Translations under genes and position numbers: made by a program
In this document: positions 569-57,600 of the stretch, in pieces
Numbering within the stretch: position 1 is the stretch's first letter
Layout: each line of letters begins with the position of its first letter
The notes under the pieces: model-generated
What the model was told of the DNA's origin: nothing
Databases searched by the model: none
Seen by the model: only the letters and a program-made list of their open reading frames with translations
Source of the DNA: Euglena gracilis
Taxonomy: Eukaryota
DNA: 64,000 bases
NCBI GenBank assembly: GCA_039621445.1
Contig: CP154954.1
Coordinates: 11,464,716-11,528,715 of the forward strand
Direction of reading: 5' to 3'

Positions 569-3500
569 GGTGCCAGGGCGGAACGAACGTTACTCAGCGA
601 CCCAAAAGCGGGCAGCCAAATGCTTGGACGTTGGCAGAGAATCAAAGAGGCTGCCCCGAGACGAGGCAAAGCGAAAAAAAAAGGAAATTCACAGCGTTTT
701 CAAAGGAAGAGATGGCAGAAATGGGAACGGGCGACCAGAAGGTCCGGAATAAGCCTGTTTTGGGCCCGGGGGATCCCCGCCTGTTGTCACGCTTGGCTTG
801 GCCCGAAACTTGCTGTGTGTGGCAGAAAAACAAAACACCTCTTCGGCGCCCCCAACCCTCTGGGCCTAGCCCCCCCCCCTGGTTGAGGCTTCATGGCCGG
901 TGCTGACTTCGCTTCTGGCCCAGTCTGCTGTGTGGTGACTGGCCAGGGACCGACTTACCCCCCCGCCCGCAGGACGGTGGGCCCCCCTGCCCGAAGCTGC
1001 TGCGGGCGCCGCCGTCGAAGTAGTACCGCTCCCCCTCCATGACCTGCACGAACACGTCCTCCCCCCGCACCTGCACCGGGAACACCTCCAGCGGGGGGCA
1101 CGGCGGGGTTTGGGCGACGACGCGGCCCGACCGCCGGGCAATGGACACTGCCAAGAAACGGGACCAGGGGAACGCAACATAATAACACAGTGCATATGCT
1201 CCACATGCAATATATATGTATATATGTATGTATGTATAAAAATATATGTATGTATGTATGTATGTATGTATGTATGTATGTATGTATGTATGTATGTGTG
1301 TAATGTATGTATGTATGTATGTATGTATGTATGTATGTATGTATGTATGTATGTATGTATGTATGTATGTATGTATGTATGTATGTATGTATGTATGTAT
1401 GTATGTATGTATGTATGTATGTATGTATGTATGTATGTATGTATGTATGTATGTATGTATGTATGTATGTATGTATGTATGTATATATATAATATATATA
1501 GTTAGGTTAGGTTTTGGATTTGGATTAGGGTTCGGGTGAAGGGTTAGGGATAGGGGAAATTAGGCAGTTGGACCGCATTTCGGCAGATTTTAGGACGAAT
1601 TTTCGGCCCAATCTTTTATATGAATTTCGACCTGATTTCGGCACAACTGTTTTCCTAAATCGTAACCCTAACCAGGGGCAGGGAGATATTCCGGTCGGCC
1701 AAAATTTTTATTCCGGTGTTTTATTCCGGTTTATTCCGGGTTATTCCGGTTTATTCCGGAATTTATTCCGGTTTATTTCGGTCAATTTCTGTCTGAATGG
1801 ACTTAGGATTTTTTCGAAGCACAACTGGGCCGAGGCACTCACCCGGCTTCAGGAATGGCGATGCATTCCTTGGTTGCCCAGCCCCGCCAAGTGGTCACTT
1901 TGCACTTGGAGATGCTGTGCAGACCGCACCACAACACACCTCCACCGTTTTGGGAAAAATAAGAAATAGGAAGCACAGATATTTTTTTCTGCATTGTGAA
2001 TCGCATTTGGGAAAAGGGGCTTTAACTGATAATAATAACACATGCAAAAACAGATGTGGTTTCATTACGCATCCAAAAATTGGGCACGCTCATATAGAAT
2101 GGAAGTTTAAGAGTTATGTTGCTCCACGGCGCAATAGAAATACAATTCTTAAAATTCTAAATTAGCGTGGCTGTTGCGCCGAAGCGAACACCTCAGCAGG
2201 TAAACCTTCACAGATCACAGAGCCTAAAAAGCAAAAAAAAACAGCCCAAAAGTCACCTAGCCCATGTAGCGCCATCTTGGAAACACAATCCAGGCTTCAA
2301 AAATGAGGGAGACACAACAGGGGTGTTGGGAAAATTCACGTGTCCCGGTGTTTAAACCCGGGGGTCGGGACCTTTCTAAAATGGAGCACACGCTTAAAAA
2401 CACCAAAAGGGCCTGTTTCCTGGGTCCCAACAACCGCAAATGATGCACGCGGTGTCACCGTGGAGGGTCCCCGCGAAACCAGAGGGTCAAAAGGGTGGGT
2501 TTCACTGCCGGGTTTCAAAAAGAATGCAACATTGCGCTTAAGCGCAATGCAAAAATCAAAAACTTAAGTGCGAGTTAGGCCGCCTAAGAGTGTTATTATC
2601 CCCTGATTGAAGGATGATTCGCTTTGTCCAATGGGATCCCTGCCCCAAAAAATCAGTGTTCATATTGTCCTAGTTCATGTCCCTTTGGAAAGAACTCAGG
2701 GACAAACGTTCACTAAGTGCAGTCCCACAAGTGGGGAGAAAATCCAAACAAAAAAATGCATTCAACCAGGGGGAGAAACAGGCAAACTAAAGGTGTGCTC
2801 TTAATATCAAGTGCTGATTGTGCTACGCTTGCGCTTGCGCTCTTTTGTTGCTCTTGTGATTTTGAAACCTGAAAATATGTCAAACTTCACCTTCATTGCC
2901 TTTGTGTCTTGCAGAATTTTCAAGCCATTGGCTGGCGCTTTTATTCCGGTTATTCCGGTTTATTCCGGTTTATTCCGGTTTTCGCTATTCCGGTTTATTC
3001 CGGTTTATTCCGGACCGGAATATCTCCCTGCCCCTGTCCTAACCCTATTCCTTATTTTAACCCCAATCCGAATCCCGTATTAAACGGAAATACGGCGCGT
3101 CGGGGCGCGAAAACCAAAATTTGGAGTTGGTGAAAGAAGTGGGACCCCCGCCCCCAGGTTAAACTACTGGGCCCTCCCCCCCCGGGGGGGGCAGTGAGTT
3201 AGTCTTGCCATATATATATGTATATATATACATATATATACATATATATTATCAGTATTGTGTCATGGCATTGTATGTAGTTTGTGGCATACACATAATA
3301 TTGCATGTGGTTTGCAACGTTGAAATGTGTGTATACGTGCGTATGGACTTTTTGTACATTTACCTTTAAAAAAATAAGAAAATAAAAACGGCAAAGCTGA
3401 ACATTATGAAGAAAAAAATGCAAAATTCAAATCACCCAATTCTTTTGCATACCCCCCCTGCTGGACCACCCCCTAGCCGCCGCCCCAGGAAACTGTCTCC

Positions 3501-54600: not shown

Positions 54601-57600
54601 CCCCAAAATTTTCGAAATTTTTCGAAGTCCCACAGGACCCAAAACCCCCCTTTGGATTGTACTTTCTCATGAAATTTAGCATTTTTGGAGGCAAGATGAC
54701 CCAGAAAAATTGATTTTCTCCATGATTTATTGTCAGAAATTATGATTTCCCCCTGGTCGTTGGCCCAAAAATTGGGGGGGGGGGCATTAACTTGGTTGGT
54801 GAAGTCGGACCTCGAGAGAGGGGGTGTTAATTGGCGCGGGGTTATTACAGGGGGGGGGGAGTTTACCCACTAAAAAGCCAAATCCACCTGTGATGGAAAT
54901 ATTTAGCTGATATTTGCAGTGAAAACCGACATACCTCAAGCACCATTCTAAACCTCCAACGGCAAACTTCTCGGTATTTTGTGCCGAAGATTGAGCTGGG
55001 ATGGTCTGGACCCAAAATCATTCCCCGCACCAGAGAGGCCTTGGCACCCCAGTTAGAAAAAAAATGGCTGGGTGGCTGGCCCCCCCGCTATCGAGGTGAA
55101 TCCCCTCAATTACCTCCCCTGCCTGGACCCCTTGAAATGTTTGAGACTCGAAAAAAATAAGTATCGGATTTGAGATGGAGCCTTGACAATGATCCCATTG
55201 GCGGACCTGCGTGGTGTTATTAATTGCGTAGTCCTTCACGACGTCCACTTTGAGGTAGCCCATCACTGCGAAGGCAAAGCCCGCGGCGCCAACCCCCACC
55301 GTCCAAAGCGGGCGTTCCTGCCGCCAGCCTGGAGACCATTGTGGCTGGCTCTGGGAATGGGAAAACATTGACGCTGAAAACCAATAGATTGAAGAATCAT
55401 AAAATTTAAAATAAAACCAAATAAAAAATATCACAAATATATTATATTTATATTAATATTATAAATATTGTATAAATATCAATATTATAAACACATTGTA
55501 TTAATATTAATATTGCAAATATATTATATTAGTATTAATATTATAAATACATTATCATGAAATCAAAAATATTCGCGAAAATCACGGGGGTAAAAAGCAT
55601 TGAACTGCCCGGCCGCAAGGATCAGGAGCCGAACCAGCCAGATGACGAAGTTGTTCATCGTGCTGCAGCAGCCCTTGCAGCAGCAGGTCGGGGTCGGTGG
55701 CTCCCTCTCGGAGAAGCTCCGCCTGCCGTAGTGGGCAAGCGGAAAGAGCCCCAAAGGATAACAGCCACACCAGCTTGCATCGGCAGCACAGTCCAGGGGG
55801 CAGACAAAACACAGCAGGCTTCTTCTTAAGACCCCCCGGGGTCCCCCCACCCACCCAGCCGAGTGTGAGACCCTGGGGGGGGGGGTGGCACCCTACCAAA
55901 AATCGGCCGTCTAAGGCCATTTCCCAAAAATTAGCGATTTGCACCAAAAACCCATACCAAGGCCTGGGGGGTCGGCTCCGGACCGACCCAACAACCCCCT
56001 CCCCCAGAGGGGGGTCTTCTGACTTAAAAGAATAGCTGTTGTAACCAAAATTTTTATGGAAACAGAAACTTCTCTCACACGGGCCGACAAAAAGCGGGAA
56101 CATTTGCTGAAAATGTCCTGCAATTCTTTCGTAAATATTTGAGAATTTTGTTGGGGATTTTCCGGGGTGCTTTGTTTCAAAACTAAAATATGTGGGCGGC
56201 CGGGACTCCTCGAGGGCCGCCCCGCGCAGGCAGCCGAACAGGCCCTCCGCGATGCACACGAAGCAGCAGCAGCATGCGCGGAGGATGGTGTAGATCACTA
56301 AGATGAGAAGCACCGCCCCGGCGATGATCCACGCCCGGGGTCGGAGCCCCACAGTGTTTTCGGTGAACTCTGTTGCTGGACGTGGTTGTGCAAATCCCTC
56401 AACATCATGTACCCCTGAATATATATGAATATATATATATATATATATATATATATATATGTATATATATATGTATGTATATACATGTATATATATTGTA
56501 ATACATAAATAGATAAAAACAAAAATGTTAACAAGTCTGGGACTGTGAGACACCCCTGAAAAACATGAGCAGAGCCGTCGTAATTCATAAAAACCAACAC
56601 CCAATCCAATGTGATGTCGATCAAACTGAAATCCCAATATAAAACGCCCCTGGGGCTGGTTTCTGGAAACGTTAATGAACCACACTGGCGTCCTAGACAT
56701 GGGGGAGGATTTATCCATCTCCCATGGACTCTGCCCAAAATCAGCAGGATAAATAATTTACTTCCATTTCTTCGAGTAGATAATCGAGCCTGGAGAAACT
56801 ACACTGCTTGTTTTGCACCAAGGGAGTCCAGCACATCAAGGAAACCCATACGCCAAAATGGAGCAAAAAGTGCAAAACTATCCACTCCAATTTTGGTGAT
56901 TCGATTTGCAGCCAGACGTGGCCCTTCTCAGGGCTGTTGTGGTGGACCGCTGGTCCAAGGAGCAGGCATTTGCTCTGAGCGCGCACACGCTTGGGCACTG
57001 GTGTGAGCACACATAATCAAGGGAAGCGTGGCTCTTCGCAGGGGGCCCCGGCCAGATGCCGGTCAAAACGACGCTCCACAGGTAGTCCTTCCACCGACAG
57101 GCCTGCCCCTGCTCATTGCAGTACCCGGGGGCATGGCCATGGGGTGAGGGGTTTTCCTACAAAAGAACTTTTACGAATAGATTCTGTCATGGCTTGTGCT
57201 GAATATCAGCTCCCCCCCGCAACAACGTGGTGGGATGCCACGTCACTGACGATATGTGTGCATATATGTATGCATGCATGCATGCATGCGTGCGTGTATG
57301 CATGCATGTAACCCCCCCCAAATAATAAACCCCCCCGGTTTATTATTTGGACACCCAAAGTCGGGGTCCAGGGGGGGGTTTATTATTTGGGGGGGTTTAT
57401 TATTTGGGCAAAAATTTCGAAGTCAAAATTAGACCCGAAAACCCCTCCACAGGCTCCAATGGTCACTTTTTTGGCATTTTTTGGGCTTTTTTGAAAACTG
57501 GGTGCTTTTTTGGCAGTTTTTTTGCACCAATTTGATCCATTTTTGTGATTTTTTGCAACATTTCTGCTAATTTTTGCACTTTTTTTATTTGCCCTCACAC

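Follow-up and report, generated by a model that had tools for sequence, protein, structure and literature searches.

Euglenid nonconventional (NC) introns are described as leaving the transcript as circular RNA, later than conventional introns, and both their origin and the mechanism of their removal have been open questions since the 1990s. Knock-in experiments in Euglena gracilis have yielded a noncanonical splicing code, 5'-N3CDG-/-CH'GN5-6|R (Nomura et al., PNAS 2025, PMC12501133). Here we compare that code with a stretch of 64,000 nucleotides from E. gracilis (assembly GCA_039621445.1, contig CP154954.1, positions 11,464,716 to 11,528,715), which is called the window below and is the single source of all the statistics given. 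[quoted passage not shown]

In the text of Nomura et al. (PMC12501133), N3 is a random spacer whose length must be 3 nt, while 5 or 6 nt are tolerated in the 3' spacer, the -1 variant of which gave weak splicing. Splicing was obtained for synthetic introns of 50 bp in which CAG/CTG and 12 more paired bases were combined with N3, N5 and a purine, and loss of the extended pairing abolished function. The same text gives 61.2% of E. agilis NC introns as fitting the code, describes 84.4% of introns as 'slidable' and suggests MITE-like sources; it makes no mention of target-site duplications and reports no resident MITEs. An origin of NC introns from MITE-like elements had been proposed at a time when no euglenid transposons were known (2013; Milanowski et al. 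2014, PMC3935182), and a review reads the CAG/CTG at +4..6 and -8..-6 as terminal inverted repeats (TIRs), with 'TSD-like' repeats at the junctions (Mob DNA 2024, PMC11282704). Hairpin-ended noncanonical introns are known from diplonemids as well (PMC12621601). A search of literature text, figures and supplements aside, found nothing that equates the spacer sum with an 8-bp duplication and no CAGG..CCTG MITEs reported in Euglena. As far as these texts go, a transposon origin and TSD-like repeats are already published and the 8-bp link to resident MITEs appears to be new.

The window is E. gracilis nuclear DNA with three genes, all on the minus strand (Table 1), and shows the ordinary gene structure of the species, with GT/GC-AG and NC introns interspersed within one gene. 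Transcript-derived proteins were placed on it exon by exon, with exact identity over nearly all exons of genes 1-3, and all donor/acceptor pairs reproducing each protein were enumerated. This gives 18 verified NC introns and 19 conventional ones, one of the latter being GC-AG and the rest GT-AG; these counts leave out one intron of gene 3 and the 3' end of gene 2. For the 18 NC introns, GT/GC-AG borders are excluded in every register compatible with the mRNA. RNA joints verify four of them, exact joins to the proteins another 11, and joins with one or two residue mismatches the remaining three. Reads and contigs were consulted for the interval 19172-30509, from a pair of raw RNA-seq runs, a set of RNA contigs and a set of DNA contigs, the RNA runs bearing the same species label as the window. 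The RNA joints listed confirm the NC introns 20026-20278, 22132-23251, 27305-28308 and 29258-30122, and also six GT-AG introns in gene 2. Intron 20026-20278 is supported by 21 reads in X21, one read in X24 and one contig in X15, with a slide of 1 nt, and the gene 2 protein P0002 is concordant. Joined forms of the RNA-confirmed introns were not found in DNA run X12 over this interval.

Measured from the terminal helix, the spacers are 3+5 in 13 of the 18 verified NC introns and 3+6 in three more, so that 16 have one or the other; the exceptions are the RNA-verified 27306-28309, with a spacer sum of 7 and not 8 or 9, and 59662-61374, with a sum of 10. Nine introns end in CAG..CTG and four in CGG..CCG, the others having CGC..GCG, GAC..GTC, CAC..GTG, CAT..ATG and an imperfect CGG pair. 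The terminal helices are uninterrupted for 3-8 bp (2 bp before a mismatch in intron 1 of gene 2) and extend to as much as 14 bp if one mismatch is allowed. The full published signature of CDG..CH'G, spacers and purine is present in 11 of the 18. Because the published code describes the same geometry, the intron half of the observation is known biology. An original prediction for this stretch, made from the letters alone, had read six intervals as exon|N3-CAG/CGG..CTG/CCG-N5|exon, and all six do have this form on the minus strand, 55304-55614 with CGG..CCG. Protein or RNA evidence bears out 569-992, 4354-5221, 20026-20278 and 55304-55614; at 6700-8596 and 8779-9177 there is a fit to the motif, and the claim that conserved protein motifs are restored is without support there.

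The MITE half was approached with a scan for CAG..CTG ends, TIRs matching at 9/12 or better and an exact flanking duplication, with 20 shuffles as control. Four elements carry exact duplications of 8 bp (27549-28201, 31447-31880, 39208-39468 and 40484-40786), as against none or one at each length of 4-7 and 9-11 bp, and the shuffled sequences gave 0.0 elements with an 8-bp TSD. In an unfiltered census of strong TIRs, the three informative elements have flanks identical at 8/8 positions for a length of 8 bp, compared with 2-4 of 7 positions for a length of 7 bp and 3-5 of 9 positions for 9 bp. The duplication of CAG..CTG MITEs is therefore exactly 8 bp. Counts from a wider CA..TG scan were discarded because ATGT/ATGC microsatellites, with their period of 4, favour 8; an unrestricted scan for TSD and TIR met the same difficulty. 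From the wider scan five non-microsatellite elements, supported by other scans, were kept. The elements have no coding capacity; TIR identity is 10-14/14, with 9/14 in the weak candidate 38526, and lengths run from 127 to 653 bp, with one element of 1364 bp; related copies occur within the window. On re-checking, the 8-bp duplications first noticed at 39208-39468 and 31447-31880 are both 8/8. The elements at 42006 and 51012 have the 7/8 duplications ascribed to them, with CAC..CTG and CAT..ATG ends rather than CAG..CTG. CAT-type ends, which fall outside the published CDG..CH'G motif, are found both in MITE 51012-51348 and in the NC intron 57127-59538 (CATGGC..GCCATG). In DNA run X12 the word depths of the 27549-28201 family add up to about 2x10^5, compared with 30-50 in the bins beside it, a figure for depth and not for copy number; the family is abundant in RNA contigs as well.

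Members of the hAT superfamily have 8-bp TSDs and short TIRs beginning YARNG, and we take the MITEs of the window to be hAT-like by their 8-bp TSD and CAGGG-type ends. No transposase turned up in the window, where the long open reading frames (ORFs) are mostly of low complexity, though no search was aimed at autonomous copies. Two Merlin families of E. gracilis also make 8-bp TSDs, and Merlin TIRs end in 5'-GG (PMC8101967); a Merlin identity was rejected for the present elements, which begin CAG, CAC or CAT and have no terminal 5'-GG.

The two halves meet in a simple sum. Since 3+5=8, a MITE together with one copy of its duplication is built as the published code requires, and taking it out would restore the target. 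For an insertion abcdefgh-CAG..CTG-abcdefgh, the code cuts after the first e and after the second e, and loss of N3, element and N5 regenerates the target, as the original prediction had correctly reckoned. Four intronic MITEs (27549, 38526, 39208 and 40484) fit N3-CDG..CH'G-N5|R, complementarity included, in the sense orientation of their host. Because synthetic introns with the same features are spliced, it is a fair prediction, by analogy, that such a code-compliant MITE would be precisely removed from an exon into which it had inserted.

The published code has so far been without a rationale, and a causal link between its spacer sum and the duplication of resident MITEs would explain it. 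The euglenid pathway measures from a terminal RNA helix, 3 nt ahead of it and 5, at times 6, after it, with a purine opening the next exon; hAT-like MITEs with CAGG..CCTG ends and 8-bp TSDs would be raw material for NC introns; and the introns now in the window would be old, having kept the geometry and the CAGG-type ends and lost the insertion-specific duplication and the family likeness. That NC introns derive, now or in the past, from such MITEs is the reading we prefer, and we give it an even chance. A more far-reaching version can only be put forward tentatively. In it the second splicing system would be a transposon-erasing device that recognises the inverted repeat of a resident hAT-like MITE, cuts 3 nt ahead of it and 5 nt beyond it, and so removes the MITE and one copy of the 8-bp duplication; insertions into exons would be silent in either orientation, provided that pyrimidine|purine stands at target positions 5|6; most NC introns, hundreds of thousands of them, would be fossil MITEs; and nyynY|GRC would be the imprint of splice-permitting targets.

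A number of results, set out in this and the next three paragraphs, weigh against a MITE origin of the window's introns, and several of them suit another explanation, which we regard as possible if rather doubtful: the code and the MITEs would be unrelated, and the NC introns of other origin, for instance conventional introns that gained terminal hairpins, with the apparent remnants reflecting a shared Y|GRC cleavage consensus. On this view CAG..CTG ends and duplications of 8 bp are generic to hAT-type elements and occur in many eukaryotes that have no splicing of this sort. A transition between intron types has indeed been proposed (PMC3935182). The duplication remnants at the junctions bear on this directly. 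Matches of 6/8, 5/8, 5/8 and about 4/8 had been offered as traces of TSDs, and the counts are correct; over the six introns concerned, 28/48 positions match, where permutation on a background of the same position-specific composition gives 20.3 (p=0.01). That set was picked with the matches in view, and includes the two motif-only candidates. The nine 3+5 introns outside it have 25/72 matches against 25.7 expected (p=0.67), so that as evidence for duplication the remnants show no excess in unpicked introns, just as would be expected were the two systems unrelated. All 13 verified 3+5 introns together reach 44/104 against 39.7 by permutation (p=0.14, at the low power of n=13), and the best intron only 6/8 or 6/9. 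A register-free measure of identity, w[p]==w[p+L], rises over exactly the positions -5..+2 (64/144 versus 102/342 in the outer flanks, p=0.0015). This rise is mostly shared consensus, because the permutation mean is already 38%; the junction consensus alone is enough to lift identity that far, again as coincidence would have it. Target-site duplication at intron borders beyond chance is not supported in the window.

The consensus itself, nyynY|GRC, holds for the 8-mers at either junction when the 13 verified 3+5 introns are compared (left: Y 13, G 9, R 9, C 10; right: Y 11, G 11, R 12, C 10). That Y/R stands at both junctions was known already (PMC6221363), which again speaks for coincidence. 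GRC is common to the intronic N3 and to the start of the downstream exon, both cuts following a pyrimidine, and no description of this was found in the texts examined. The shared GRC may be a trace of targets that permit splicing, or it may reflect which sites are preferred for cleavage. That N3, 'random' in the published code, carries the GRC of the downstream exon start counts against coincidence, a duplicated target being the simpler explanation. The Y|GRC consensus seen at intron junctions is missing from the target sites of the MITEs. Given this, and the purine that the code needs at the exon start, the statement that any such insertion is silently spliced was too strong.

Family resemblance was looked for by comparing the window with itself. 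None of the 18 verified NC introns matches a repeat family or is covered end to end by a repeat pair, and no homology between introns and MITEs was found within the 64 kb; this too is in line with an origin unrelated to MITEs. In DNA run X12, intron 29259-30123 is near single copy (bins 37-49, one 174), repeats are confined to the interior of 22133-23252 and 27306-28309, and 20026-20278 shares a depth bin with exons (76.6 versus 47-50 in its neighbours, about 1.6x). Five of the 18 introns have spacer sums other than 8, namely 7 (RNA-verified), 9, 9, 9 and 10, of which the sums 7, 9 and 10 are themselves points for coincidence, and five of the 18 have ends that are neither CAG nor CGG, or an imperfect CGG. 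Because the remnant evidence dissolves with unselected introns and five of the 18 break the sum of 8, descent of the window's introns from MITEs is not shown. On the other side, introns and MITEs agree in three independent respects: the trinucleotides that pair at the ends, a G as the fourth base, and spacers that add up to the length of the TSD. The chance of such an agreement is, as a rough guess, a few per cent, and this speaks against coincidence. The fourth base makes a CAGG start in seven of nine verified CAG-type introns, as in all CAG-ended MITEs, an excess with p=0.005 against base composition and p=0.09 against G-or-C. The T at position 2 and the A at position 7 of the hAT target consensus are each present in 7/13 reconstructed intron targets, a post hoc count that is not relied on.

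The MITEs had been described as 'free', but most lie in introns: seven in gene 3 (38526, 39208, 40484, 40946, 42006, 43252 and 51012), 27549 in the third intron of gene 2 and 1673 in the fourth of gene 1, both of these introns being NC. The possibility that TSD-flanked MITEs are introns themselves was rejected, since on the exon maps each falls within an intron or in intergenic DNA. There is no case in these maps of a TSD-flanked MITE that is an intron, nor any exonic MITE, a weak point against the proposed origin; the absence of exonic MITEs says little because exons make up about 6% of the genic span and about 0.5 exonic insertions are expected. An excision joint of the nested MITE 27549-28201 is not among the best-supported RNA joints listed; as reads in repeats were skipped and a further 163 joints fall outside the list, its absence has no weight as evidence. 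When five MITEs were excised in silico, the empty sites gave no convincing coding frame.

The density of MITEs within genes can also be read with cause and effect reversed. The helix-measuring pathway would have come first, and transposon families that happened to fit the code would have been tolerated in transcribed DNA and so become abundant; MITEs would still make introns, and the code would not be transposon-shaped. MITE families whose ends differ (CAT..ATG at 51012, CAC at 42006) do occur alongside compliant ones, and the hairpin-ended introns of diplonemids suggest an old pathway (PMC12621601). The compliant MITEs, however, are all in introns or intergenic DNA, where compatibility with splicing brings no obvious advantage, and the window holds nothing that orders the two events; we consider this sequence of events distinctly improbable.

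With these alternatives weighed, the observation behind the original prediction is partly confirmed and its interpretation, that TIR and TSD geometry underlies the splicing code, partly supported. Were NC introns indeed derived from MITEs, there would be a second, spliceosome-independent route from DNA transposons to introns, operating on a genomic scale, and the hypothesis would be testable with existing genomes. Were the agreement a coincidence, the window would simply be a well-annotated case of a gene structure already known from Euglena, with hAT-like MITEs in it.

The remaining features of the window concern its individual genes. In gene 1, the final 64 residues of P0001 were not found in the window. 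The two candidate introns upstream of the P0001 start codon, 6700-8596 and 8779-9177, have good terminal helices and N3/N5 geometry, and a frame resembling an N-terminal extension is open across them; a second frame is open over both junctions too, and the third nearly to the end. The putative exon between them, 8597-8778, was found in no database protein. If real, the candidates would lengthen the gene 1 product at its N-terminus by some 140 residues, two hydrophobic stretches among them (6591-9360), and to us this part would look like a Euglena plastid-targeting presequence. Further down the gene, element 1673-3036 is flanked by degenerate telomere-like repeats of the TTAGGG / CCCTAA type (1500-1700, 3030-3090) and has subterminal TTATTCCGG tandem repeats, all of this inside intron 4.

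Gene 2 has six NC and eight conventional introns, and further repeats of very high depth lie within introns of both kinds (19172-19927, 22196-22951 and 24464-25597). DNA run X12 differs from the window by many intronic mismatches within 19172-30509, RNA reads split at several exonic positions (e.g. 19990, 21628, 22110 and 30250) and P0002 departs from the window at a few residues, all of which points to alleles, strains or paralogues. Gene 3 has seven NC and 11 conventional introns, with one more left out of both counts, and a Pfam search placed its protein P0004 in no family; a Pfam search of ten ORF pieces bearing exons gave no match either. In intron 16 of gene 3 (43244-43608), the duplication of MITE 43252-43600 (GGCGTGTG on the gene strand) consists of the last exon base and the first seven intron bases. 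It spans the donor site, of which a second copy therefore stands at the element's far end. A tandem duplication of about 430 bp with 98% identity (37651-38072 / 38087-38508) lies within the last intron of gene 3.

Table 1. Genes, NC introns, candidate introns and MITEs of the window. Entries ending in 'OP' were also claimed by the original prediction; the bar marks the start of the downstream exon.
Feature	Position	Strand	Description
Gene 1	503-6644	-	Rieske-like [2Fe-2S] protein, 233 aa, EukProt EG_transcript_22691 (P0001), PF13806
Gene 1 exons	6644-6591, 5936-5847, 5321-5223, 4351-4268, 1109-993, 568-503	-	
Gene 1 intron 5	569-992	-	N3-CAGGG..CCCTG-N5|G; protein level, 0 mismatches (P0001); OP
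Gene 1 intron 4	1111-4271	-	Spacers 3+5 around a GAC..GTC helix of ambiguous register; element 1673-3036 and tandem repeats lie inside
Gene 1 intron 3	4354-5221	-	N3-CAGGGCCC..GGGCCCTG-N5|G; 0 mismatches to P0001; OP
Gene 1 intron 2	5318-5845	-	N3-CGG..CCG-N6|A; 5-nt direct repeat CCGCA at junctions
Gene 1 intron 1	5937-6590	-	N3-CGCGCCC..GGGCGCG-N6
Candidate intron upstream of gene 1	6700-8596	-	N3-CAGGGAGGC..GCCTCCCTG-N5|A; motif fit only; OP
Candidate intron upstream of gene 1	8779-9177	-	N3-CAGC..GCTG-N5|A; motif fit only; OP
Gene 2	15259-30276	-	RNase_T-type exonuclease, 514 aa, EG_transcript_9347 (P0002); 15 exons mapped, gene continues below 15259
Gene 2 intron 13	15702-16522	-	N3-CAGCC..GGCTG-N5|G; protein level, 2 mismatches
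Gene 2 intron 12	16595-18000	-	N3-CAGGCT..AGCCTG-N5|G; protein level, 1 mismatch
Gene 2 intron 9	20026-20278	-	N3-CAGG..CCTG-N5|A; RNA-verified; OP
Gene 2 intron 6	22133-23252	-	CACC..GGTG, spacers 3+6; RNA-verified
Gene 2 intron 3	27306-28309	-	CAGCG..CGCTG, spacer sum 7; RNA-verified; contains MITE 27549-28201
Gene 2 intron 1	29259-30123	-	N3-CGG(G)CTG..CAGC(G)CG-N5, one helix mismatch; RNA-verified
Gene 3	36786-61455	-	Membrane-like protein, 538 aa (P0004), about 21 exons
Gene 3 intron 13	46322-47571	-	N3-CAGGC..GCCTG-N5|G
Gene 3 intron 10	50294-51579	-	N3-CAGGCAAAGC..GCTTTGGCTG-N5|G; contains MITE 51012-51348
Gene 3 intron 5	55304-55614	-	N3-CGGGC..GCCCG-N5|G; P0004, 0 mismatches; OP
Gene 3 intron 4	55690-56227	-	N3-CGG..CCG-N5|G (1 mismatch)
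Gene 3 intron 3	56337-57053	-	N3-CGG..CCG-N5|G
Gene 3 intron 2	57127-59538	-	N3-CATGGC..GCCATG-N5|G; outside published motif; protein-verified
Gene 3 intron 1	59662-61374	-	CAG..CTG, spacer sum 10
Element	1673-3036		1364 bp, CAGGGG..CCCCTG ends, 24-bp perfect TIR; TSD ambiguous (CCTAACC-repeat flanks offset 1 nt); inside gene 1 intron 4
MITE	27549-28201		TIR 14/14 (CAGGGCAGAACGGG), TSD GGCCAGCC 8/8; high-copy family; inside NC intron 3 of gene 2
MITE	31447-31880		TIR 13/14 (CAGGCATTTGCTTA), TSD ATTGCAAG 8/8; between genes 3 and 2
Relative of MITE 39208	32140-32406		CAGGG..CCCTG ends, TSD decayed 3/8; between genes 3 and 2
MITE	35026-35338		CAT/CAGGCTTGTGCTTA ends, poly-G flanks (uninformative for TSD); between genes 3 and 2
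Weak MITE candidate	38526-38652		TIR 9/14, TSD 7/8; conventional intron 19 of gene 3
MITE	39208-39468		CAGGG..CCCTG ends, TSD ATTGGGAA 8/8; conventional intron 18 of gene 3
MITE	40484-40786		TIR 13/14, TSD CCTTGCCC 8/8; conventional intron 17 of gene 3
MITE	40946-41189		TIR 14/14 (CAGGGGTTTTCTTA), poly-C flanks (uninformative for TSD); intron 17 of gene 3
MITE	42006-42252		CAC..CTG ends, TSD 7/8; GC-AG intron 16 of gene 3
MITE	43252-43600		One end decayed, TSD CACACGCC 8/8; 7 nt past 5' splice site of gene 3 intron 16
MITE	51012-51348		CAT..ATG ends, TIR 14/14, TSD 7/8; inside NC intron 10 of gene 3

Set against described systems, the MITEs resemble nonautonomous hAT elements, with which they share the exact 8-bp TSD, TIRs of 10-24 bp and, in several elements, CAGGG ends. 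They differ in that some begin CAGGC, CAC or CAT, and by eye only three of eight MITE TSDs conform to the hAT target consensus nTnnnnAn. With the Merlin elements of E. gracilis they have 8-bp TSDs in common (PMC8101967). The introns agree with the code of Nomura et al. in having no GT-AG ends, a terminal helix, spacers of 3 nt and 5-6 nt and a purine at the exon start; the 11 of 18 that fit it come near to the 61.2% given for E. agilis in the text of that paper (PMC12501133), and the seven that deviate do so by CGC, GAC, CAC, CAT or imperfect CGG ends or by spacer sums of 7 and 10.

A parallel is offered by the introners of Micromonas, Aureococcus and dinoflagellates, DNA transposons that have made spliceosomal introns by co-opting their TSDs (PMC11282704). 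As the review describes them, they too are elements with TIR and TSD that are removed at the RNA level together with one copy of the duplication, so that insertions in exons are tolerated. Introners, however, use the spliceosome and GY-AG sites, form obvious multi-copy intron families and have TSDs of 3-5 nt, whereas the system in the window has a helix-measuring pathway and an 8-bp TSD, and no intron families were found in its 64 kb. With the MITE-origin hypothesis as published (PMC3935182, PMC11282704) the present account shares the reading of inverted repeats at intron ends as TIRs. New with respect to the texts of those papers are real CAGG..CCTG MITEs with exact 8-bp TSDs, lying beside the introns, and the equation of the spacer sum with the length of the duplication.

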